Source: Candidatus Fervidifonticultor quintus (GTDB lineage Bacteria; Sysuimicrobiota; Sysuimicrobiia; Sysuimicrobiales; Humicultoraceae). Taken from it: a stretch of DNA of 64,000 nucleotides. The notes below the pieces were generated by a model. It was not told the origin of the DNA. It did no database searches and saw nothing but the letters and a program-made list of their open reading frames with translations. Positions within the stretch are counted from its first letter, which is position 1. Each line of letters begins with the position of its first letter. The position numbers and the translations under genes are program-made. The stretch spans positions 68,503-132,502 of the forward strand of contig JAVKIJ010000001.1 of assembly GCA_031459535.1 (NCBI GenBank), given 5' to 3'. This document shows positions 943-14,112 of the stretch, in pieces.

Positions 943-1392
943 TCATGGTCCGCTCACCGCCGGGTACCCTGCCGCGACCCAGGCCTGGATGCCGCCCGCC
1001 ATGCTGGTCACCTTCGTGTACCCGGCGCGGCGCAGGATGTCTCGACCCTGGCGGCTCCGATTGCCAGTTCGACAGACGACGACCACGTCCCGATCGCTTG
1101 GCACCTCGTTGACCCTCGACGCCAGGGCGCCCAGCGGAATCAGCGTGGACCCGGGAATGTGCACCTGGTGCCACTCCTGGGGTTCGCGCACATCGAGGAT
1201 GAACGCCCCGTTCCCACGCCTGGCGGCGGCCTCGGCTGTCGAGATCTCGTCTGGATACGACGCGCGACCGCTGCCTCGCAGCCCCCAGGTCGCTGCTGCG
1301 GCCACGGCCAGGAGCACCACGAGGCCGACGACCAGATAACCGGTCGTTGACGGCTGCTGGGCACCGCCTCGCCTCGTCGTCCTCAAGCTCAT
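943..1392 (-). CDS. Rhodanese-like sulfurtransferase with N-terminal TM/signal segment
   Basis: LDVREPQEW, HIPGS, active-site loop CRTGNRS, GGIQAW. Confidence 0.9.
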   Translation of the reverse strand: MSLRTTRRGGAQQPSTTGYLVVGLVVLLAVAAAATWGLRGSGRASYPDEISTAEAAARRGNGAFILDVREPQEWHQVHIPGSTLIPLGALASRVNEVPSDRDVVVVCRTGNRSRQGRDILRRAGYTKVTSMAGGIQAWVAAGYPAVSGP

Positions 1393-1473: not shown

Positions 1474-1674
1474 GCCCCCTCCGGTCGAGCACGCGCCCTC
1501 CCCGCCGCCCGCCGTGGAGCGGCCGCGGCCGATGGCCGCGAACGCCGAGATCCTGCGTCTGATCTGCTGGCTGCCGCAGTGGGGACAGCCGACGTCCTTG
1601 ACTTCGCTGTGGCTCCAGACCAGCGCCTCGAAGGCCTCGCCGCACGACTGACAGGTGAATTCGTAGACCGGCAC
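1456..1674 (-). CDS. FmdB-family zinc-ribbon protein; ends at TGA 1471-1473, or at TAG 1456-1458 if the UGA is read as Sec
   Basis: MPVYEFTCQSCG...CPHCGS motif; Gly-rich tail CSTGGG-TGA-GVRF-TAG. Confidence 0.85.
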
Positions 1675-1675
1675 C

Positions 1676-2086
1676 TCACTCACCCTCCAGGAGCGCCGCC
1701 ACACGATCCAGGCGCGCCCGGGCCTCCTCGGCTATAGGGCGCAGGTCGGCAGCTCCGATCACACCCAGCATGGCCACCGGATCGACCAGCGAGACCTCGT
1801 TGACCCCGGGCTCGACCTCCGACACGGTGACGTTGCAGGGCAGCAGCAGGCCCACCGCGGGCACGACGCTCAACGCCCGGTACGCCAGCGGAGGGTTGCA
1901 CGCGCCCAGGATCGTGTACGGCCGGAACTCCACGTTGAGCTTCTGTTTCAGGGTCTCTCTCACGTCGATCGTCGTCAACACCCCGAATCCCTCGGTCTTG
2001 AGGGCGTCGGTCACCCGCGCGATCGCCTGACGGTGGTCGGCCCTGAGGCGAACCGTGCGGCCAATCGCGCTTGGCGCAACGTTCAT
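1676..2086 (-). CDS. DUF302 family protein
   Basis: EGFGVLTTIDV, YTILGACNP, GLLLPCNVTV motifs; AAGGAGG RBS. Confidence 0.88.
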   Translation of the reverse strand: MNVAPSAIGRTVRLRADHRQAIARVTDALKTEGFGVLTTIDVRETLKQKLNVEFRPYTILGACNPPLAYRALSVVPAVGLLLPCNVTVSEVEPGVNEVSLVDPVAMLGVIGAADLRPIAEEARARLDRVAALLEGE

Positions 2087-2154
2087 GGTGGTGTGCACCT
2101 CCTTGTGTGACATGGCAGCGATGACCAGTGTCCGACGAACCTCGAACGCGGCAC

Positions 2155-3543
2155 TCACTCGACCGGGAAGCCGCTCCGCACCCAGGCGGCAGTGCCTCCG
2201 CTGACGTTGTAGACCGCGGCGAACCCTCTGTGGACCAGCAGCGCCGCCGCCGACTGGCTGCGGTTGCCGGTTTCGCAGATGACCGCCGTGGGCCGGGCCG
2301 GATCCAGCTCGCGCACCCGCTCGAGCAACTGGCCCAGCGGGAACAGCCGCGCCCCTGGCACGTGACCCTGCTCGAATTCCCAGGGCTCGCGCACGTCCAG
2401 CACGACCGGCGCGCTGCCGCCGCCCGCCCCGAGCATGGCGCGCAACGCTTCGGCGGAGAGGTCGTGCACGCCTCCGCTGGCAAGCGGAAGACCCATCGCC
2501 TGCCAGGCGTTCAACCCCCCGTTGAGACAACCGAGTACTTGCTCGAATCCCACACGGGCCAGCGCCAGGACCACCCGGCTATACGCGGCGTGATCGTCGA
2601 GCAACAGGATCACCGGTGCATCCGCCGGGAGGACGAAGCCGCTGCGGTTGCTCAGTTGAGGATCGGCCTGCAGGTGCACCGACCCGAGGATGTGGGCCCG
2701 GACGTACTCCACCCGCGGCCGCACATCGAGCAGCACCGCGCCCTGGTCGAGGCGCGCGAGGGCTTCACCGATCGGAATGGCTCGCGGGGTGACCTCACCG
2801 AGCGGGGTCGGACCTCGTCGGTTGGCCTGTTTGATCCACGCGTGGTTGGCCGGCTGTTCCGGTAGCCGGTCAGTGGCGAACTGGACGAAGCCGGGCTTCG
2901 GGCGCGGGCGCAGCGCCGGGTTGAACCGCCGCTCGAATCCCAGGGTCGTGGTCGGCATGGCGCCGATAGACCTGCCGCACAACGATCCCTTGCCGTGCCC
3001 CGGGTAGACCAGCACGCTGTCGGGCAGCGCCAGGAGCCTGCCGAACAGGCTGTCGTACAGGTGGCCCGCAAGCTCGCGCGCCGCGTCCAGGCCGACCAGG
3101 TCCGGCCGGCCCACGTCGCCTACGAAGAGCGTGTCGCCGGTAAACGCCAGCCACGGTTCGCCCGAGCGCCGCAGGTCGGCCGCCAGCACTGTGACGCTGT
3201 CAGGCGTGTGCCCCGGCGTATGACGCACCTGCAGCCGCGCCGTGCCGAGCTCGAGGATGTCGCCGTCTCGCATCGGAGCGTGCGGAAACTCGGCGCGGCC
3301 AGCCTCGTGGACGCAGATGGTCGCCCCGGTCCGCGCGGCCAGATCGGTATTGCCGGAGATGTGATCGGCGTGGAGGTGCGTTTCGATGATGTGGCTAATG
3401 CGCGCGCCGCGGGCCGCGACGGCGTCCAGGTACCGTCTGGTGTCGCGGTCGGGATCAATGACCGCCGCGACGCCGTGCACCTCGCAGCCGATCAGGTACG
3501 ACGCGCACCCGAGCCCATCCACGGTGAACTGCTGGACGTACAT
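2155..3543 (-). CDS. MBL-fold persulfide dioxygenase-like protein fused to two rhodanese domains (CstB-like)
   Basis: THLHADH, GHT, GDTLFVGDVGRPDL, PGHGKGSLCG; C-terminal rhodanese with CETGNRS. Confidence 0.9.
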   Translation of the reverse strand: MYVQQFTVDGLGCASYLIGCEVHGVAAVIDPDRDTRRYLDAVAARGARISHIIETHLHADHISGNTDLAARTGATICVHEAGRAEFPHAPMRDGDILELGTARLQVRHTPGHTPDSVTVLAADLRRSGEPWLAFTGDTLFVGDVGRPDLVGLDAARELAGHLYDSLFGRLLALPDSVLVYPGHGKGSLCGRSIGAMPTTTLGFERRFNPALRPRPKPGFVQFATDRLPEQPANHAWIKQANRRGPTPLGEVTPRAIPIGEALARLDQGAVLLDVRPRVEYVRAHILGSVHLQADPQLSNRSGFVLPADAPVILLLDDHAAYSRVVLALARVGFEQVLGCLNGGLNAWQAMGLPLASGGVHDLSAEALRAMLGAGGGSAPVVLDVREPWEFEQGHVPGARLFPLGQLLERVRELDPARPTAVICETGNRSQSAAALLVHRGFAAVYNVSGGTAAWVRSGFPVE

Positions 3544-5599: not shown

Positions 5600-5610
5600 A
5601 GTGTTGTCAA

Positions 5611-5657
5611 GGCGATGGAGTCCGCCTGAACCGCCCTGACGGGCTGATGGCTCCTAC
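5611..5657 (+). ncRNA. Fluoride riboswitch (crcB motif), copy 1
   Basis: GGCGATGGAGTCCGCC...GCCC-TGAC-GGGC-TGATGGCTCCTAC matches the crcB consensus including the GGAG/CTCC pseudoknot. Confidence 0.92.
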
Positions 5658-5688
5658 CCAACTCAGCGGGTAGGAGCCCTCTCTGTTC
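5649..5688 (+). terminator. Riboswitch expression-platform terminator-like hairpin
   Basis: GGCTCCTACCC/GGGTAGGAGCC stem overlapping the aptamer 3' end; weak pyrimidine tail. Confidence 0.6.
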
Positions 5689-5711
5689 CCGCTGTCAACA
5701 GAGGCGGATCC

Positions 5712-6908
5712 GTGGAGCAGGTCTGGTTCACCGCAGCCATCTGGCTTGGACTCGCCCTCATCGCCACCCTCCTGTCGATCTGGCTGCGGGTGTCCGTCGC
5801 CCTAACCGAGATCACCGTGGGCATGGTGGCCCAACTGGTCGTCGCGGGAATCGCCGGGCCGGGGGCGCTGGGTGCCCGGGAAGGATGGATCGCCTTCCTG
5901 GCCGGCCTTGGGGCGATGGTGCTCACGTTTCTGGCCGGCGCAGAACTCGACCCGGACTCCTTCCGAAGGAACTGGAAAGAGGCAACCGTCATCGGGCTCG
6001 TGGGATTCTTCGCGCCGTTTCTGGGAGCCACGTGGGCGGCGCGGGCCTTGCTGGGGTGGGGTGTCCAGGCCAGCCTGCTTGCCGGCGTCGCCCTCTCCAC
6101 CACATCGGTCGCCGTCGTCTACGCCGTACTCCTGGAGCTCGGCCTCAACCGGACTGCCTACGGCAAGATCATTCTCGCTGCCTGCTTCATCAACGATCTG
6201 GGCACGGTGGTCGCTCTGGGCCTGATCTTCGCACCGTTCACGCTGCGCAGCCTGGCGTTTGTCGTGGGCCTGGGGGCGGGCCTTGCGGTATTGGTCCGGG
6301 CCACCGGCGCGCTTTTTGGGCGGTACGGGGGGCGGACTTCAGAGCTCGAGGCCAAGCACCTGCTGTTCGGCCTCTTTGTGCTGGGCGGGCTCGCGGTATG
6401 GTCGGGCTCCGAGGCGGTGCTCCCTGCCTACCTCATCGGCATGGTCCTGGCGGGCACCGTGGGCCGTGATCAGGCCCTGGTCAGGCGGCTCCGGACGCTG
6501 ACCTTCGGGTTATTGACCCCCTTCTACTTCATCCGGGCCGGATCGTTCGTCGATGTGCCTGCGGTGGTGGCGGGTCTCGGCGTGTTCACCGTGCTCTTCC
6601 TGGCGAAAGCGGTCAGCAAGTTCGTCGGCATCTTTCCGCTGACGCGCCGGTACGGCTATCCCCACAATGAGGGCATGTACACCACGCTGTTGATGTCCAC
6701 CGGCCTGACGTTCGGCACCATCGCCGCGCTCTACGGCCTCTCTCACGACATCATCACCCAGAAGCAGTACTCGTTCCTCGTAGCCACGGTGATCGCGAGC
6801 GCTGTGGTACCCACCTGGGTGGCCAACAAGTTTTTCCTGCCGGTGCGCCATCTCCCGTCCGAGGAGGCACGCGACCCCCAAGATGCGCTGACGGCTGAGC
6901 CCGAGTAG
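5712..6908 (+). CDS. Cation:proton antiporter (CPA2/Kef-like, membrane domain only)
   Basis: Many TM helices; FLAGAELD, ALSTTSVAVV, ACFINDLG, LMSTGLTFG. Confidence 0.88.
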   Translation: MEQVWFTAAIWLGLALIATLLSIWLRVSVALTEITVGMVAQLVVAGIAGPGALGAREGWIAFLAGLGAMVLTFLAGAELDPDSFRRNWKEATVIGLVGFFAPFLGATWAARALLGWGVQASLLAGVALSTTSVAVVYAVLLELGLNRTAYGKIILAACFINDLGTVVALGLIFAPFTLRSLAFVVGLGAGLAVLVRATGALFGRYGGRTSELEAKHLLFGLFVLGGLAVWSGSEAVLPAYLIGMVLAGTVGRDQALVRRLRTLTFGLLTPFYFIRAGSFVDVPAVVAGLGVFTVLFLAKAVSKFVGIFPLTRRYGYPHNEGMYTTLLMSTGLTFGTIAALYGLSHDIITQKQYSFLVATVIASAVVPTWVANKFFLPVRHLPSEEARDPQDALTAEPE

Positions 6909-6936
6909 AGATGCAGGAATGCGGAGGGAGCGGACA

Positions 6937-7356
6937 ATGATCACGCACATCCTCATTGCTCACGACGGTTCCGATGTGGGGCGGCGGGCGGTTGAAGTCG
7001 GCACCGACCTGGCCCTGCGCTATGGGGCGAAAGCGACTCTGCTGACGGCGATTCAATATCCCGCCTATGCGGCCACGGTGGACGAGGTCCAGGGCGCCGA
7101 CGAGGAGCAGCGGGCCTTCGCCGAACGGGTCCAGCGTCAGGCGATCGAGTACGCTCGGATGCGCGGCCTCGACATGTCGGTCGCGATTGTGGCGGGCCAT
7201 CCGGCCGAGGTGATCGTGGACTATGCAGGGCAGCACGGGATTGACCTGATCGTGATGGGACATCGGGGGCTGTCCGGGTTGAGGCGGTTTCTGGTGGGCA
7301 GTGTTGCGGACCGAGTGGTGGATCACGCACCATGCATGGTGTTGGTGGTGAGGTAG
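6937..7356 (+). CDS. Universal stress protein (UspA family)
   Basis: ILIAHDGS; DLIVMGHRG...FLVGSVADRVV. Confidence 0.93.
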   Translation: MITHILIAHDGSDVGRRAVEVGTDLALRYGAKATLLTAIQYPAYAATVDEVQGADEEQRAFAERVQRQAIEYARMRGLDMSVAIVAGHPAEVIVDYAGQHGIDLIVMGHRGLSGLRRFLVGSVADRVVDHAPCMVLVVR

Positions 7357-7468: not shown

Positions 7469-9085
7469 CTACGGGCTCGCCGCAGACACGGGGCTTGGGG
7501 GCATGCCGAAGACGCGCCGATACACGTCCTCTCCATGGCTGGTGGCGAGCGGCTCGCCTTCCAGGATTCGGTAGGTCCGACGCCCGTCGGGGAGTCGTTC
7601 GGCGCGAAGGAAGAGAGCCTCATCCAGTTGCTGCCGGTGCAGTGAGCGTGCGAGATCGAACAGGTGGGTGACGAAGACGATTCGCACACCGAGGTCCGCG
7701 AGCGCTCGGAGCACCTGGCGCGCGATCTCTGATCCTTCGCGCTCGTTGGTGGCAGCAAAGGACTCGTTGAGAAGAATGACAGAGTCCGGGCGGACGTGAT
7801 CGATGATCTCACTCATACGCCGCAGTTCTTCGTCGAACTTGCCGCTTCTCATCTCGACGTCCTCTTCCCTCTTGAAGTGGGTGAAGAGACCGCGGCAGAG
7901 GCTGGCGTGGAACGAGCGGACCGGAACGATCATACCCGCCTGCATCATCAGTAGCGCCGTGCCGATCGTGCGCAGGAAGGTGGACTTGCCGCCGGAGTTG
8001 GGACCGGTGATGATCAGGAGATTCTTCCGGTTCGCGTAGAGGTCGTTGGGGACCACGGGGCTATCGAGAGTCAGGGCGAGAGTGACGTCGTGCAGGCCCT
8101 GAAACGACAGCCGCCGCTCGCTCGCGGGAGAGGGCAGGGGCAGGGACGTGGGGTACCCCTTGCGGGTCAAGGATTCGTGGAGATTCAGACAGCCGATGTA
8201 GAAGGCGAGTTCCGCTCGCAGCATGGTGAAGAAGTCGCGCACGTGGTTGGCGGCTTGGCCCAGGGCGTCGGCGGCCGAGGCAGTGGCCCGATTGCGGAGC
8301 TCGGCCAGGGCCTGGACGCCGGCTTCGTCGCGGGGGGAGAGCTCGAAGCGATAGGTGGCTGGGTGCTCTTCGAAGAGGTTCTTCCACCAGTCGATCCAGG
8401 CTCGCCTGCGGGCCGAGGTCCGGTGCAAGCGGTAGTGGGTGCCCTTGTTGGCGGGGCCGAGCTCGGCACTGAACAGCAGGCCGTGTGGGAATGTGAGGTC
8501 GTGCAGGTGGCGTTCGACCGCTGTGAGGTAGTCGCCGCCGAGGTTCTGTTGGACCATGGCGAAGAACGTGGTCCAGGCCTGGGCGCCGAAGTGCCGTGCG
8601 TGGAACTCGGCGAGGTCGCGGAGCTTCCGGAGCGGTCCGAGGAGCTTCGTCATCGTCTCGCGGGAGTCGCGGAGCACCCAATCCGGGTAGCGAGAGAGCA
8701 CGCCGAGATAGTGCCCCCTCAACGGTTCTGTGGCTTCCACCGCGAGGGCGTAGAGATGGCGGACCACAGCCGGTTGGCGGAGGCAATCGGCCAGAACACA
8801 CTGACGATACAGAATCGTGTCGAGATCACCTTGCACGGCCTCCAGGAGGACTCTGCGGCTGACCTCAAAGACCCAGTCGTCGCCCCGTGCCATGGCGTCC
8901 AGGAGGGGAATCAGGGCCAGGTCCCGCTCGAGGTCCTCGGCGTTCCAGGGAAAGCCGGCATGGGGATTGAAGCCAGCGGGACGGGAGCGTCGTTGTCCAG
9001 TACGCGCGGCGGTGCGCTCCACTGCCGCCTGCTGTACGTGCTCCCAGTCCAGATCCAGCGTGGGATGCAGAAGGTGGGCCTTCAT
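7469..9085 (-). CDS. MutS-family ATPase (truncated type, no mismatch-binding or Smr domain), subunit B
   Basis: IITGPNSGGKST Walker A, THFKREED, SGKFDEEL, LLNESFAATN, VTH; ATG overlaps the upstream TGA. Confidence 0.88.
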   Translation of the reverse strand: MKAHLLHPTLDLDWEHVQQAAVERTAARTGQRRSRPAGFNPHAGFPWNAEDLERDLALIPLLDAMARGDDWVFEVSRRVLLEAVQGDLDTILYRQCVLADCLRQPAVVRHLYALAVEATEPLRGHYLGVLSRYPDWVLRDSRETMTKLLGPLRKLRDLAEFHARHFGAQAWTTFFAMVQQNLGGDYLTAVERHLHDLTFPHGLLFSAELGPANKGTHYRLHRTSARRRAWIDWWKNLFEEHPATYRFELSPRDEAGVQALAELRNRATASAADALGQAANHVRDFFTMLRAELAFYIGCLNLHESLTRKGYPTSLPLPSPASERRLSFQGLHDVTLALTLDSPVVPNDLYANRKNLLIITGPNSGGKSTFLRTIGTALLMMQAGMIVPVRSFHASLCRGLFTHFKREEDVEMRSGKFDEELRRMSEIIDHVRPDSVILLNESFAATNEREGSEIARQVLRALADLGVRIVFVTHLFDLARSLHRQQLDEALFLRAERLPDGRRTYRILEGEPLATSHGEDVYRRVFGMPPSPVSAASP

Positions 9086-10614
9086 GGACGAACGCGTTCT
9101 CGGATCGCGTCGTACGTCAGGCCGTGCTTCCGCGCCAGTGTCAGGGCGTAGGCAAGGCCGTCGGCGGGCCGCCGGACGATCTTGAAGGTGCGCACCTCGG
9201 GATTGTCGGGGGTGACCGTGGCGACCATGCTGACGGTCTTGGCGCTCCACGAGGCCAGCTCATCGAGGAATGTCACCCACACGCAGAAGGCGTCGAGCTC
9301 CGAGATGGCAGAAATGACTTGTCTGGCCAGAGAAAGAGCATCGCGCAAGGTGGTGGAGGAAAAAACCTCGTTGATGACGAGGACACTGCTGGCTGTGGCA
9401 GCTTGGAGGATCTGGTGGATCCTGAGCACGTCGTGCTCCAACTGGCCCTGGGGGCTCGCGACGGGCTCCCCTCGTTCGAAGTGGCTGAAGATCCGATCCG
9501 GCAGAGATAGCCGCGCTGAGGCGGCTGGGACGGGGCATCCCAGTGACGCTAGGTAGTGAAGCTGACCGAAGGTGCGGGCAAAGGTGGTCTTTCCACCCTG
9601 GTTTGGACCGGTGACGATGATGATGCGCTCCGGATCATTCAGGCAGAAGTCGTTGCACACCGGCAGGGAGCCCTCTCGGACGAGTCTGGCCGCCAGCGCC
9701 AGATCGAAGCACTGATGAGCGTACACCCGCTGGGACGAATCGCCGATCCGAGGATAGCAGAAGTTCAGACCCGCACGCTTCATTGGTGCGATGTACTCGA
9801 GATAAGCCATGTAGAATTGCACTTCTCGGTCAAAGGCCTCGATAGCGGGTTCGAGGAACGATCCATGGGCGCCGCGAAATGCGGCGAGGTCGGCGAAGAG
9901 TTCGGGGTACAGGGCTGCGACGCCGTCGAGGACTTGGGCCTCGACGTGGTTCATGTTGGAGGAATTTGGGAAGGTGAACTGGTAGCCAGAAGAGTGGGTC
10001 TGGCGGAAGCGTTGGAACGTGTGGGTGATTTCTGCGCTGTAGTCGGTCTCACCCTGGTGGTGGCGCACCTCGACGAGCAATCCGCGGATGAGGGTAGCGT
10101 AGCGGAGCGAGGAAAGCGCAGCCCGAAGACGGTCGGCTTCGTCTCTGAGTTGCCTGAAGGCCGGCCCAGATGCGTAGGCGAGGAGGAAGCGGCGAAACTC
10201 CAGGAGCCCGGCGGACTGAAGTCGCGCGGCGGAGAGGTGCTCGGCTAGGCGGGAAACGGCGTGGCAGTAAAGCCCGACGGCATCCAGGAACCAGCGCTCC
10301 TGCTGCCGCTGCCAGTACGCTTCTCTGGAGAGAGCGAGATGCGATCGAACGGTGCGCATGGCCGATGCAAAGTCAGCCACCTGGGCGAACAGCATGGAAT
10401 CTTCCAGATCCTTCATGACCGCCTGGCGGAAGAGGACCCCGCGGACCGAGGGGAGAGGGGTGTAGAAGAACGGGTTGAGATGATACTCCTCGCGGCCGGC
10501 GGCGACGCCGTTGACGACTTGGTCGAGAAGCAAGTCGGTAAAGAACGGCGGAGGCTCTGGCTGGAGGACCAGGCGCGCCTGATCGGGCGGAAAGAGCAGG
10601 CTCAGCCTCGTCAT
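9082..10614 (-). CDS. MutS-family ATPase (truncated type), subunit A
   Basis: IVTGPNQGGKTT Walker A, SHFERGE, GQLEHDV, VINEVFSSTT, AYALTLARKHGL. Confidence 0.88.
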   Translation of the reverse strand: MTRLSLLFPPDQARLVLQPEPPPFFTDLLLDQVVNGVAAGREEYHLNPFFYTPLPSVRGVLFRQAVMKDLEDSMLFAQVADFASAMRTVRSHLALSREAYWQRQQERWFLDAVGLYCHAVSRLAEHLSAARLQSAGLLEFRRFLLAYASGPAFRQLRDEADRLRAALSSLRYATLIRGLLVEVRHHQGETDYSAEITHTFQRFRQTHSSGYQFTFPNSSNMNHVEAQVLDGVAALYPELFADLAAFRGAHGSFLEPAIEAFDREVQFYMAYLEYIAPMKRAGLNFCYPRIGDSSQRVYAHQCFDLALAARLVREGSLPVCNDFCLNDPERIIIVTGPNQGGKTTFARTFGQLHYLASLGCPVPAASARLSLPDRIFSHFERGEPVASPQGQLEHDVLRIHQILQAATASSVLVINEVFSSTTLRDALSLARQVISAISELDAFCVWVTFLDELASWSAKTVSMVATVTPDNPEVRTFKIVRRPADGLAYALTLARKHGLTYDAIRERVRP

Positions 10615-10946
10615 GGCTTCGGCATCTGACGCTCGCATCGTAAGAGCAGCCCGCGCGCGGGCTCGAATCCTGGTTGGTCGTCGAGGATCTCGCGCAGGAT
10701 CTTCGCCGCGTCGGCGAACTGGCGTTGCTCGACGAGACTGTGGGCGAGGTGTAAGCGAAAGTGTGGTTCATACGGGTTGAGCCAAACAGCCAGCCGGAAG
10801 AAGCGCTCGGCAGGTTGGTACGCTTCGCACTTCATGAGATGTGCGCCGATTCGATCCTCGGCGTATCCCAGATGGGGACTAGGGCGCAGCAGTTCGTTGC
10901 GTCGCTCGTGAGGCGTGCCCCGGGTTCGACGCGCCGCCGCTACCAT
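10611..10946 (-). CDS. Small tetratricopeptide-repeat protein
   Basis: AERFFRLAVWLNPYEP and AAKILREILDDQPGF TPR patterns; overlaps both neighbours. Confidence 0.75.
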   Translation of the reverse strand: MVAAARRTRGTPHERRNELLRPSPHLGYAEDRIGAHLMKCEAYQPAERFFRLAVWLNPYEPHFRLHLAHSLVEQRQFADAAKILREILDDQPGFEPARGLLLRCERQMPKP

Positions 10947-11668
10947 CGCCACACCACGCCCGGCGCACCCACGTACTTGTGGAGCACACGCTGCCAGGAG
11001 GTGGCCTCCCCCTGGCTCATGGGCTCGTGCCTAAACCGATAGTCGTGCTTTCGCCAGAATTCCGACAGGTCGTTCAACAGACCCTCCAGGAGCGCTCGCT
11101 CCGCATTCGTTAGCCACTCGAGGTCCGAGGAGGACTCGGTCTGGGTCATCACGGTGGCGAGATGTCGGAGACACAACCCCAGGCTCGACGCGTAGCGGGC
11201 GCGGAAGTCCTCGTCCGGCAGCGCCTGGGCCGTGGCCCACGTGTACCGCTCCTCCGCCTGCCACTGGTCGGCGCAGGCGAGGCAGGGCCGCTGGGGAGTC
11301 AGCCATGCTGACAGGCTGCGGCCGAGCCCTCCGTTCGATCCACCGAACAACGCCAGGCGCAGCCCGACGGGCTGACTCACGCGTCCAGCGGCTTCCGTAA
11401 TGAAGGTGTCATAGAACTCCTGCAGCAGATGGCGATAGACAATGGCGATGCCGGTCTGGCTGTCCAGGATGTGTGTCAACCGCCAAGCGTGCGCCGCGCA
11501 GAAACCGCGCGAGGCGAGCAGGTCCTCTCGGGTCCAGGGGTCATTGACCCGCTCGTACAGAAATCCGTCGATCAGCCGCTCGACCCCCTGCACGCTGAGA
11601 TGACAGACCGCGCAGTGCTGCCAGTCGAGGGCATGATAGACCGCGAGGAACAACTGGTCGTGCTGCAT
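10940..11668 (-). CDS. DUF6062-like protein with duplicated CxxC...CxxH motifs
   Basis: CAVC...YERVND...GFCAAH and CLAC...GLCLRH; C-terminal RKHDYRF. Confidence 0.8.
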   Translation of the reverse strand: MQHDQLFLAVYHALDWQHCAVCHLSVQGVERLIDGFLYERVNDPWTREDLLASRGFCAAHAWRLTHILDSQTGIAIVYRHLLQEFYDTFITEAAGRVSQPVGLRLALFGGSNGGLGRSLSAWLTPQRPCLACADQWQAEERYTWATAQALPDEDFRARYASSLGLCLRHLATVMTQTESSSDLEWLTNAERALLEGLLNDLSEFWRKHDYRFRHEPMSQGEATSWQRVLHKYVGAPGVVWRW

Positions 11669-11671
11669 GGG

Positions 11672-12118
11672 CTATCGGCGCTCTCCAACGGGGCTGTCGC
11701 GCCCGGGCCGTGGTCCTGCACCATCGCCGGTGCTGATCAGACTGGCCTCGAGCTCGGCCACGGCCCGACGCAGCCGATCGTGCCGTGCCCGCTGGATGGC
11801 CAGCGATCGCTGATACTGGGCGTTGGACGCTTCCAGCCCCGTGATGTTGAGACGGAGAGTGCGGATGGCCTCATCGGCCAGGTAGGCCCGGTGCCGGAGG
11901 ATAGCCATCTCGGCCCTGGCAGCCGACCACTCATTGTGGAGCTGTTCGGTGGGTCGCTCCGATGCCGTCAATGCGTCAGCGGCATATGCCAGGAGGATCT
12001 TGACTCCCTCCTCAGGCGTCCAGCCCCTCTCGCGGATGAAGGCCTCGAACCGCGTACGGAGCCGGGCCGGGATCGGAACGGCGATCCGCTCCATCCGTGG
12101 AAAGACGAACTCACTCAC
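11672..12118 (-). CDS. Hypothetical protein: RHH-like N-terminus plus coiled coil
   Basis: IAVPIPARLRTRFEAFIRERGWTPEEGVKILL followed by a heptad-rich helix; coupled to the upstream stop. Confidence 0.7.
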   Translation of the reverse strand: MSEFVFPRMERIAVPIPARLRTRFEAFIRERGWTPEEGVKILLAYAADALTASERPTEQLHNEWSAARAEMAILRHRAYLADEAIRTLRLNITGLEASNAQYQRSLAIQRARHDRLRRAVAELEASLISTGDGAGPRPGRDSPVGERR

Positions 12119-12593
12119 GCCTGAACCTGCCCACGCCAAGGAGCCTGGCCAACCGGTTTCCCAGCGCCTGTGGACGCCTAGGCGATGGCGTCGGTGCAGT
12201 CAGCGCCTCTCGAAGTGATCGAAGCTTCGCGTCCAGCGCGTCCGTCTCACGTCGCAGAGGCCACATCTGCCCCCGGTTGGTCCGTAGCTCAGCCCCCAGG
12301 GCGTGCACCCTCTCCGAGAGCTCATGCATGAGTTTCTCGCTGGCAATGGTGCGGGCACGCAGGGACACCAGGAGGGCCTCGGTCTCCCGTCGCTTGAGTT
12401 CCTCACGCCGCCTCTGGGCGTCGAGGCCCGATTCTCCCTCCAAGGCTCGCCAGGAGGCTTCGTCCTGGGCGAACAGATCGATCCCCTGCTCCAGGAGCCA
12501 TGGCAGTCCCGCGTCGACTTCACGGCCGGCCATCTCAAGGGCTCGCCGGATCACAGCCCAGTCGTCGCTCAGCAACTCTACATCGATTGTCAT
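12111..12593 (-). CDS. Hypothetical protein: RHH-like N-terminus plus coiled coil; first gene behind riboswitch 2
   Basis: IDVELLSDDWAVIRRALEMAGREVDAGLPWLLEQG followed by a long coiled coil; AGGAG upstream. Confidence 0.7.
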   Translation of the reverse strand: MTIDVELLSDDWAVIRRALEMAGREVDAGLPWLLEQGIDLFAQDEASWRALEGESGLDAQRRREELKRRETEALLVSLRARTIASEKLMHELSERVHALGAELRTNRGQMWPLRRETDALDAKLRSLREALTAPTPSPRRPQALGNRLARLLGVGRFRRE

Positions 12594-12619
12594 TGCTTCA
12601 GCGAACTCCTGCATCCCGT

Positions 12620-12658
12620 AAACAAGAAGCCCCTACCGATCCACAGATCAGTAGGAGC
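12620..12658 (-). terminator. Intrinsic terminator of fluoride riboswitch 2
   Basis: GCTCCTACTGATC-TGTG-GATCGGTAGGGGC followed by TTCTTGTTT. Confidence 0.8.
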
Positions 12659-12699
12659 TATCAGCCTCGCGACATGAGGCGACGGCGAGCTCCATCGCC
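12651..12699 (-). ncRNA. Fluoride riboswitch (crcB motif), copy 2
   Basis: Minus strand GGCGATGGAGCTCGCC-GTC-GCCTC-ATGTCGC-GAGGC-TGATAGCTCCTAC. Confidence 0.9.
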
Positions 12700-12727
12700 T
12701 ATTCGATTTGAGCCTGCTTTGTAACAC

Positions 12728-12757
12728 AGTCTACCTTACCGGAAGTCACTGTGTCAA
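12728..12757 (-). promoter_or_regulatory. Sigma70-type promoter for the riboswitch-2 operon
   Basis: TTGACA (12757-12752), 18 nt, TAGACT (12733-12728), ~30 nt before the aptamer. Confidence 0.6.
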
Positions 12758-14112
12758 CGCGCCGAATCGCGCCGCCTGAGATCTTACCCTGGGGCCTATC
12801 GTCGCGTCATAGAAGATCTTACCGAGCCAAACCGGCATGCCAGGGTCCTGGGAGTAGAGATGAGCCCTACGTCGAGACGAGAATACATCCAGGCAATCCG
12901 CCAGCGCTATGTCCGCGCCCCGCGTGCTGTCAAGCAGCACCTGCGCGATGAGGTCTGTGCCGTGACTGGGTACCAACGCAAGTACGCTAGCCAGGTCCTC
13001 AACAGCGCGTCCCCGGCCAAGCACCCGTGTCCCCGGCGGCGCCGGGCTCCCACGTACGGCGCCAGGACCATCGCCCTCCTGGCCGCAATTTGGGAAGCCG
13101 CCGGGTACCCCTGGTCGGCGCGGCTCAAGGCCCTGCTGCCGCTCTGGTTGCCCTGGGCCACGCCGCGGTTTGCGATCACCCCCGAGCAGGAGCGCAGTTG
13201 CTGACGATCAGCCCCCGGACCATCGACCGTCGCCTCGAGGCCACGAAAACCCACCTGCGGTGCCGCCTCTATGGTCGCACCAAGCTTGGCACGCTACTCA
13301 AGCACCACATCCCCCTCAAGACCGATCGGTGGGACGTCACCACCCCCGGCTTCGCCGAGACGGACTTGGTCTCGCACTCCGGCAACGCCGCCGACGGCGA
13401 GTTTGTCCACTCCCTCAATCTGACCGACATCCAGTGCACCTGGGTCGAAACCCGCGCGGTGCTGGGCCGCGGGCAGACCGGCGTCCTCGCAGCCGTGGAC
13501 GAGATCGCGGAGGATCTCCCCTTTCTCCTGCGAGGACTAGACGCCGACAACGGCTCCGAGTTCATCAACCACCACCTCTTCCGGTACTGCCAGGACCACG
13601 GGATCCAGCTCACCCGCGGCCGGCCCTACAAGAAAGACGACAACGCCCACGTTGAGCAGAAGAACTGGACGCACGTCCGCAAGCTTCTGGGCTGGGATCG
13701 CTACGACTCCCACCAAGCCCTGGAGGCGATCAACGACCTCTACCGCCACGAGCTCCGGCTCATGATGAACCTGTTCCAGCCCTCGGTGAAGCTCGTCCGG
13801 AAAGTCCGCGTCGGCTCCCGGCTCAAGCGGGTCTATGACCGGCCCCAGACGCCCTTGGATCGTCTCCTGGCCACCGGCGCTGGCGACCCGGCGAAGGTCG
13901 CCGCCTTCCAGCAGCTGCGCACGCGCCTGGATCCCTTCGCGCTCACCCAGCCGATCGATCGGAAACTCGCCCGAATCTACCGCCTCGCGAACCACCGCCC
14001 CAGCCTCCCGTGCGTCGCCCCGCCACAAGGTCCGCCAGTGAAGTGCAAGGGGTGGGGTCCCGGCAGTGCCGCCGCGGAGGACTGGTTCGTCATCCGCGCG
14101 AAAGCAGACTGA
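12752..14112 (+). mobile_element. Defective insertion sequence (rve/DDE transposase, ISNCY/IS481-like); right end not found
   Basis: Possible TGT left end; 22-nt repeats TCGCG(C/T)C-N5-AGATCTTACC at 12767-12788 and 12802-12823; transposase downstream. Confidence 0.7.
12860..14112 (+). pseudogene. Integrase-core DDE transposase with a frameshift near 13194
   Basis: N-terminal ORF 12860-13204 continues in another frame (QLLTISPRTIDRRL); ETDLVSH, DADNGSEF and DNAHVEQKN catalytic motifs. Confidence 0.85.

Follow-up and report, generated by a model that had tools for sequence, protein, structure and literature searches.

The 64,000-nt stretch of Candidatus Fervidifonticultor quintus analyzed here (GenBank assembly GCA_031459535.1, contig JAVKIJ010000001.1, positions 68,503 to 132,502; hereafter "the window," numbered from its first letter) encodes an operon of six minus-strand open reading frames (ORFs), G1 to G6, behind a fluoride riboswitch. 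The aptamer, a member of the crcB motif (RF01734), lies at 12645-12708 on the minus strand, where it matches positions 1-64 of the Rfam model with 40.8 bits (E 7e-08) and scores 67.6 bits with our own model R1. In a covariance-model search of the window, two RF01734 riboswitches reach the Rfam gathering score of 34, and the second is located at 5602-5663 on the plus strand (59 bits). A sigma-70-like promoter (TTGACA, 18 nt, TAGACT; 12728-12757, minus strand) is found about 20 nt upstream of the operon aptamer. The site is a consensus match only (10 of 12 positions), and it is the sole promoter-like site between 7200 and 13000 (shuffled sequences gave a mean of 0.6). A terminator-like hairpin with a T-rich tail (12618-12659, minus strand; 14 pairs at 12659-12628), identified by pattern match only, overlaps the 3′ strand of the aptamer, and the start of G1 is 14 nt beyond it. 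This hairpin would serve as the expression platform of an ON switch, since the layout follows the known design of the fluoride riboswitch class (Weinberg et al., 2010, PMC2864571).

The six ORFs are translationally coupled. The G1 stop and the G2 start overlap at 12111-12118 (GTGAGTGA), a 3-nt gap separates G2 from G3 at 11669-11671 (TAG-CCC-ATG), and the remaining junctions are overlaps at 10940-10946 (G3/G4, ATGGTAG), 10611-10614 (G4/G5, ATGA), and 9082-9085 (G5/G6, ATGA). The GC content at third codon positions is 0.70-0.84 across all six genes, compared to a GC content of 0.68 for the window. A weak terminator-like site occurs inside G3 and another inside G5, with none elsewhere between G3, G4, and G5. 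A first-pass annotation of this DNA had described a riboswitch-led operon of six genes with overlapping or nearly abutting codons, including the 3-nt gap, and we find the six co-directional ORFs and all five junctions as it placed them. It had also proposed induction by fluoride, with which the aptamer, the overlapping terminator, the promoter-like site, and the occurrence of the same switch before orthologs elsewhere are consistent at the sequence level. The study from which the DNA likely originates also includes a metatranscriptome run, and this run contains 0.60 of the sampled words of the stretch, a figure that applies to the whole stretch and may include DNA carry-over.

The paired MutS-like ATPases

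The last two genes, G5 (510-518 aa; 9082-10638, minus strand, with a start at 10614 or 10638) and G6 (538 aa; 7469-9085, minus strand), match MutS_V at 74 and 81 bits, respectively. No other MutS-related family (MutS_I, MutS_II, KOW, Smr, or MSSS) was identified in either protein by Pfam, whereas the true MutS2 in locus L077, serving as a control, does show Smr and MSSS. The two proteins can be aligned over their full length (23% identity), and also with orthologs from two phyla, in keeping with the two divergent ATPases of the first-pass annotation. Both fall under the NCBIfam cut-offs for mutS1 (73-77 bits vs. 641.7) and mutS2 (55-89 bits vs. 400). The AlphaFold2 (AF2) model of G6 (predicted local distance difference test, pLDDT, 83.4) superposes on MSH2 (Z 30.5) and, with its residues 40-521, on residues 260-776 of an E. 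coli MutS chain (Z 28.7), as well as on MutS2 from T. maritima (9kce, residues 1-477, Z 29.1), T. thermophilus (7vuk, Z 28.2), and B. subtilis, the last bound to a collided disome (7qv3, Z 27.3). Since the alignable part of MutS begins near residue 260 and that of MutS2 at its first residue, the model suggests that G6 consists of the lever, clamp, and ATPase domains only.

Because domains I and II are lacking and the host genome carries a separate canonical MutS along with a MutS2-like gene, a role of G5 and G6 outside mismatch repair is supported, as the first-pass annotation had proposed. In domain content, adjacency, and overlap, the pair fits MutS4A and MutS4B as described by Lin, Nei and Ma (2007, PMC2190696), who reported neighboring genes in which the A stop codon overlaps the B start codon and gave no function for them. 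Among the orthologs, a MutS4A at 1655-2677 (minus strand) of locus L180 is without the part matching G5 residues 95-242, which is either an internal deletion or an assembly artefact. In or beside the MutS4B of locus L186, a match resembling a T-box leader (1074-1346, minus strand; 67.6 bits vs. a gathering score of 93) is probably due to chance. A role in anti-phage defense was considered and set aside, as PADLOC returned just P-loop-level matches for G6 and none for the other five proteins.

The most suggestive feature of the pair is its Walker B motif, which we tabulated over 34 MutS4 sequences (29 B and 5 A subunits) aligned to solved MutS and MutS2 structures. Walker A is intact, also in G5 and G6, while Walker B reads Asn-Glu in 34 of 34 sequences, so that in both subunits Asn replaces the magnesium-binding Asp. 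The "GRGT" motif after Walker B is replaced as well. The His of the H-loop is kept in all 29 B subunits, including G6, and is Phe in all five A subunits, including G5. The MutS and MutS2-like genes of the host retain both Asp-Glu and the H-loop His. Enzymes of phosphoryl transfer are poisoned by fluoride in the form of magnesium- or metal-fluoride complexes, and for this reason no other single feature of the locus is as suggestive as the invariant Asn. The nucleotide switch of MutS4A/B might depend little on magnesium and would then keep working when such complexes poison ordinary magnesium-dependent NTPases, making the pair a fluoride-tolerant stand-in for a MutS-family task, e.g., the control of recombination or repair. 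We regard this specific mechanism of magnesium independence as tentative and rather doubtful. Magnesium is coordinated by the Walker-B Asp in E. coli MutS, where weakened metal affinity makes mutants slow to switch and poor at repair (Lebbink, 2010, PMC2857095).

MutS4A/B could act on ribosomes or RNA in the manner of MutS2, clearing complexes stalled by fluoride-trapped GTPases, rather than on DNA. The G6 model does fit the MutS2 core from its first residue, at the Z scores given above, and the best sequence match of G5 in the PDB is MutS2 (E 6.7e-16). However, the model fits DNA-bound MSH2, MSH6, and MutS equally (Z 27-30), and the KOW and Smr domains, which confer the ribosome activity of MutS2, are found by Pfam in neither G5 nor G6. 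Moreover, in the single published test of a MutS4 operon, which is also the only functional report that we found for MutS4, homologous recombination in M. smegmatis increased upon introduction of the mycobacterial operon (Kim, 2017, PMC5742357). A ribosomal role is thus unlikely, even though it fares better than the other alternatives discussed below. We prefer the reading in which MutS4A and MutS4B would pair as an asymmetric heterodimer that clamps nucleic acid, with DNA the most likely substrate.

DUF6062 and the smaller proteins

The third gene, G3 (242 aa; 10940-11668, minus strand), encodes an all-helical protein of the DUF6062 family (PF19538, 63 bits vs. a cut-off of 27). The protein harbors two CxxC…CxxH modules formed by C19, C22, C57, and H60 and by C129, C132, C166, and H169. 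Across 70 DUF6062 sequences, C19, C22, C57, H60, and C166 never vary, C129, C132, and H169 vary hardly at all, and the two Cys3His modules probably bind zinc. The halves of DUF6062 are homologous to each other (hhalign 97.7%, E 1.9e-12), which agrees with the internally duplicated Cys/His protein recognized in the first reading of this DNA. The AF2 model (pLDDT 93.8) contains helices only. Foldseek identified nothing in the PDB at E ≤ 0.001, the best hit of a wide VIA structure search had a Z of 5.2, and a profile search against PDB sequences gave none below E 0.05; these negatives do not prove a new fold. In the ESM Atlas, the structure adjoins clusters that bear dynamin-family GTPase domains (TM 0.72-0.76).

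PF19538 is a large family (5396 cluster representatives at E ≤ 0.001) whose members often occur as tandem or fused pairs, and DUF6062 by name is absent from the searchable literature. Two metagenomic sequences join DUF6062 to another protein. P0124 (968 aa; 8 member sequences on 3 contigs) combines the N-terminal part of DUF6062 with an H+-pyrophosphatase, and P0125 (482 aa; 2 member sequences on 1 contig) combines the first DUF6062 half with MutS4B from about residue 190. Both may be real fusions, deletions, or assembly chimeras. A gene for an H+-pyrophosphatase also follows DUF6062 in loci L016 and L032.

The operon begins with two paralogs, G1 (167 aa; 12111-12614, minus strand) and G2 (148 aa; 11672-12118, minus strand), each with a ribbon-helix-helix (RHH)-like N-terminus and a coiled coil, and neither matches a Pfam family at cut-off. 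A profile comparison finds the G1 and G2 families homologous (95.6%, E 1.2e-8, 119 columns), although BLASTP between the two proteins detects no significant similarity (E 0.88); the earlier description of two related coiled-coil proteins is thus recovered at the profile level. The GTG start of G2, which overlaps the stop of G1, is supported by the conservation of residues upstream of an internal ATG. Orthologs of G1 are also found behind the riboswitch in relatives. The RHH fold is a lead that comes from weak matches of the G2 profile to RelB antitoxins (E 0.008 and 0.027, residues 9-53), and the pair may be a fluoride-induced DNA-binding heterodimer. Matches of the same profile to DARPin and ankyrin sequences span about 25 residues only and were set aside as a probable chance likeness to the ankyrin consensus.

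Between DUF6062 and MutS4A lies G4 (111-113 aa; 10611-10952, minus strand, with a start at 10946 or 10952), a small TPR protein that meets TPR_19 marginally (25.5 bits vs. a Pfam cut-off of 25) and for which tblastn found no relative in 130 related loci. In Chloroflexota fluoride-riboswitch operons, DUF6062 is followed by a conserved zinc-ribbon/HEAT protein of about 165 aa. This protein stands between DUF6062 and MutS4A, which is the place of G4, in L038 (5396-5911), L073 (7726-8220), and L091 (4790-5272), and it also follows DUF6062 in L082 (4353-4877) and L083 (2570-3088). Homology between G4 and the zinc-ribbon/HEAT proteins was considered, and alignment, which was the only comparison made, shows none.

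Riboswitch linkage and separability of the modules

The association of the operon's genes with fluoride riboswitches was examined in other genomes, where riboswitches outside the Rfam threshold were called with our own models R1 and R2. Among the 12 DUF6062 loci of close relatives, a riboswitch is directly upstream in 9 at the Rfam gathering score and in 11 with R1, the twelfth being cut at a contig end. A wider DUF6062 scan with one genome per species gave 213 relatives, and the best 80 loci were taken with about 7 kb examined on each side; the simple gene caller, which is noisy in high-GC DNA, was used solely to choose ORFs for Pfam. Within these best 80 of 213 loci, R1 and R2 place a riboswitch ≤350 nt upstream of DUF6062 or of the preceding coiled-coil pair in 36, and elsewhere in the locus in a further 11. 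When 16 distant loci with such a direct riboswitch were re-run in Rfam, 8 reached the gathering score, and these belong to metagenome-assembled genomes labeled Omnitrophota, Thermodesulfobacteriota, Methylomirabilota, UBP3, Anaerolineae, and, in one case, simply "bacterium." The neighbors of riboswitch-free DUF6062 genes (GH116, multihaem cytochromes, P-type ATPase, and others) are heterogeneous and provided no lead.

MutS4B orthologs occur in 15 of 94 genomes of the window's phylum, and a riboswitch is in operon position at 11 of the 12 assessable loci (it is not so placed in L136, and L141 is truncated). In one Chloroflexota class, 27 of 251 sampled genomes carry MutS4B, and in 21 of the 23 assessable loci among 25, the riboswitch occupies the operon position (L173 and L192 are the exceptions, and L169 and L156 are cut). 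In R2 alignments of the Chloroflexota leaders, the aptamer core is conserved and the variable stem carries long insertions. The constant spacing of 60-180 nt before MutS4A supports these calls independently of their score. Many leaders in L170-L192 and L037-L050 have variable-stem insertions of up to about 40 nt and score 26-32 bits in Rfam, and standard annotation would miss riboswitches in Chloroflexota leaders that fall below 34 bits. Tandem elements resembling fluoride riboswitches, two or three on one strand, precede the same gene string in L101 (6339-6940), L190 (4585-6543), and L174 (7216-8051).

The genes that share the switch here do not travel as one set. DUF6062 is encoded by 13 of 41 related genomes, and G1, G2, and G3 are all present in 10 of the 12 DUF6062 loci of these relatives. 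The MutS4 pair is found in one of the 12, in the order riboswitch, Na+/H+ exchanger, universal stress protein (Usp), MutS4A, and MutS4B. Across the 41 genomes, 3 have both DUF6062 and MutS4, 10 have DUF6062 only, 4 have MutS4 only, and 24 have neither, while about 2.2 with both would be expected by chance. The five other genomes of the genus have no MutS4B; their operon ends after DUF6062, and the TPR and MutS4 genes are absent. Consequently, this species alone of the six in the genus has G4 and MutS4A/B joined to the upstream genes. In other genomes, some MutS4 pairs have a riboswitch to themselves, and others follow the Na+/H+ exchanger and Usp. The RHH/coiled-coil pair in turn occurs with a major facilitator superfamily (MFS) transporter and without DUF6062 in L130-L132, L135, and L140. 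Taken together, these distributions argue against an obligate complex of six subunits.

Such a complex was the central proposal of the first-pass annotation. In its fullest form, the six proteins would be one fluoride-induced machine in which DUF6062 and the repeat protein dock on the MutS4 heterodimer and the coiled-coil pair acts as a scaffold. In its favor are the five junctions, where stop and start codons overlap or abut, and likewise the loci in which DUF6062 and MutS4 occur together (9 of the 80 DUF6062 loci and at least 6 of the 25 Chloroflexota MutS4 loci), the 1-4 nt overlaps between the four genes of L073, and the joining of a DUF6062 half to MutS4B in P0125. However, P0125 is rare, lacks half of each partner, and may be a deletion or chimera. 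A complex prediction for G3 and G5 with G4 as partner (score 0.00, mark 0.32) gave no answer either way. A single machine of six subunits is not supported, given that the modules recombine freely, that the other five genomes of the genus are without the TPR and MutS4 genes, and that DUF6062 and MutS4 share genomes about as often as chance would allow. With no relative of G4 found in the 130 loci searched, we consider such a machine improbable, somewhat more so than a ribosomal role of MutS4.

A sister operon converges on the six-gene operon (5602-7356, plus strand), consisting of the second riboswitch (5602-5663), a Na+/H+ exchanger (5712-6908), and Usp (6919-7356), and in other genomes operons of this type end with a MutS4 pair. 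On the other side, two overlapping ORFs (12860-14112, plus strand) are divergent from the operon promoter and look like a frameshifted insertion sequence (IS) transposase, with an rve match of 23.6 bits that is below the cut-off. The IS-like transposase may be linked to the species-specific rearrangement that brought in the TPR and MutS4 genes.

Interpretation and comparison with known systems

We favor the view that several fluoride-regulon modules have been strung together in this operon, in an arrangement particular to the species. The first module is the lineage-specific paralogous RHH-like/coiled-coil pair, the second is DUF6062, and the third is a small helical-repeat protein followed by MutS4A and MutS4B. 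That the operon is a composite of separable modules is highly probable. In the mechanism that we propose, fluoride would stabilize the aptamer, the overlapping terminator would not form, and the six proteins would be made together, with DUF6062 and the RHH pair acting beside MutS4A/B and not as obligate subunits. To this explanation as a whole, a composite ON-switch operon with the MutS4 pair as a clamp, we assign a probability of roughly 0.6.

Several observations weigh against this explanation. The genome counts come from kin and are not independent, and about 9 of the 80 DUF6062 loci duplicate loci of relatives already counted. In 33 of the best 80 of 213 DUF6062 loci, neither R1 nor R2 finds a riboswitch, and hence DUF6062 may not be specific to fluoride. 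Among 19 Chloroflexota MutS4 loci, the Rfam gathering score is reached in only 5; a more permissive Rfam search of 8 of the others recovers 6 at unchanged coordinates with 26.5-32.4 bits, below 34, and leaves L172 and L181 unmatched. The low scores are probably explained by the long insertions in the variable stem (P3). The translational coupling of all genes would fit a complex too, and the Chloroflexota order of DUF6062, helical-repeat protein, MutS4A, and MutS4B recurs in L038, L073, and L091. The binding partners proposed for MutS4 and DUF6062 are inferred. Lastly, an Asn in place of the Asp impairs E. coli MutS (Lebbink, 2010, PMC2857095), and MutS4 might be no more than a slow or regulatory ATPase.

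Two further alternatives fare worse than those already discussed. MutS4A/B might be a reactivase that frees enzymes locked by metal fluoride, comparable to KamC, a MutS-type ATPase named for lysine 5,6-aminomutase and annotated in a protein-directed role. NCBIfam ATPase_KamC does match G6 (76.6 bits) and G5 (44.3 bits), but these scores are far under the 300-bit cut-off and cover the ATPase domain only, and the pair has kept the lever and the clamp known from DNA-binding MutS proteins, which makes a reactivase very improbable. Equally improbable is a chance juxtaposition in which the riboswitch drives G1 to G3 and an inserted G4 to G6 use their own, fluoride-unrelated promoter: the same-genus operons that stop after DUF6062 and the IS-like transposase directly upstream would suit it, but G3, G4, and G5 are joined by overlapping codons with no gap and, except for the weak site in G3 and the one in G5, no terminator-like site, and a fluoride riboswitch leads the MutS4 pair at 32 of the 35 assessable loci elsewhere.

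The composite operon is embedded in a genome (88.85% complete) that has three fluoride riboswitches but in which neither CrcB nor CLC was detected. CrcB was detected in 3 of the 41 relatives, all of them lacking DUF6062 (one of the three, G022, is flagged unpublished), and in 0 of 4 Chloroflexota genomes, of unstated completeness, that bear both modules. One MFS transporter subfamily (55-71% identical) is found in fluoride-riboswitch operons near DUF6062, Usp, or the coiled-coil pair (L017-L024, L131-L135, L060, L097, and L058). In the window's genome, it is encoded on another contig (L113, 513-2189) in the order third riboswitch, Usp, and MFS. This subfamily is a candidate fluoride-related exporter in a lineage mostly without CrcB and CLC. 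Since the host lineage mostly lacks the known exporters, the modules of the operon together with the MFS transporter are candidates for an alternative means of surviving fluoride.

A bolder possibility, which we think unlikely, is that MutS4 and DUF6062 represent a so far undescribed arm of the fluoride response, one that would guard or replace nucleotide-driven machines and not export fluoride, with MutS4, lacking the magnesium-binding Asp, remaining unlockable. The zinc module of DUF6062 might then partner the P-loop NTPase of each lineage, which would be MutS4 here and dynamin-like GTPases elsewhere, as the structural matches in the ESM Atlas suggest. Together with the MFS transporter, this set could be the main fluoride defense in lineages without CrcB and CLC-F.

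Riboswitch-led stress operons were already known, as was the presence of "mutS" beside the crcB motif, which Weinberg et al. (2010, PMC2864571) named among the downstream genes in describing an aptamer followed by an overlapping terminator. In the searchable literature, this is the sole paper tying crcB, MutS, and a riboswitch. No paper in the searchable literature joins "MutS4" and "fluoride," or "fluoride riboswitch" and "mismatch repair," and there is none with a tested fluoride role for DUF6062, the RHH/coiled-coil pair, the TPR protein, or MutS4. The gene lists and supplements that reportedly accompany the 2012 work of Baker and colleagues on fluoride-riboswitch operons may already cover part of our findings. 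What is new is that MutS4 pairs stand behind a fluoride riboswitch in most loci of two phyla (11 of 12 and 21 of 23), that the Walker-B Asn is invariant in MutS4 (34 of 34), and that a riboswitch precedes DUF6062 in 36 of 80 loci drawn from many phyla. The "mutS" printed in 2010 without explanation is now tied to the MutS4A/B subfamily, and its conserved magnesium-site change bears on fluoride chemistry in a way that is testable with purified protein. DUF6062, with its thousands of members, gains weight as a fluoride-response family. An alternative means of fluoride survival is relevant to fluoride toxicity, hot-spring ecology, and engineered fluoride-tolerant strains.

Compared to the fluoride-riboswitch operons known from Weinberg et al. 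(2010, PMC2864571) and from the FRM operon of E. cloacae (Liu et al., 2017, PMC5533749), the operon shares the aptamer with an overlapping terminator. As portrayed in those sources, the known operons are multi-gene stress sets that include Usp and cation/proton antiporters, and their expression is expected to rise with the ligand. The operon here differs in its cargo of DUF6062, the RHH/coiled-coil pair, the TPR protein, and MutS4, and in its host, in which no CrcB or CLC was found. With regard to PF19538, G3 is a clear member of a family that has no described function.

G5 and G6 share with the published MutS4A/B (PMC2190696, PMC5742357) a C-terminal MutS ATPase region as the only part recognizable by sequence, the adjacency of two paralogs, and the stop/start overlap (ATGA at 9082-9085 here), and a patchy distribution resembling horizontal transfer is common to the published family and to this one. 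Unlike the loci described here, those papers do not feature fluoride or riboswitches (0 occurrences in PMC5742357). The MutS2 core (7vuk, 9kce, 7qv3) has the lever-clamp-ATPase set from residue 1 in common with G6 (Z 27-29), whereas G5 and G6 are without KOW, Smr, and MSSS and have the Walker-B Asn for Asp; MutS2 is also a homodimer, whereas a heterodimer of two paralogs is proposed here. The closest counterpart of the magnesium site is E. coli MutS D693N (PDB 3k0s, PMC2857095), which carries the same Asp-to-Asn change. In E. coli MutS this change was engineered and yielded a repair-impaired mismatch sensor, whereas MutS4 carries the Asn naturally, without exception in all 34 sequences and in both subunits.

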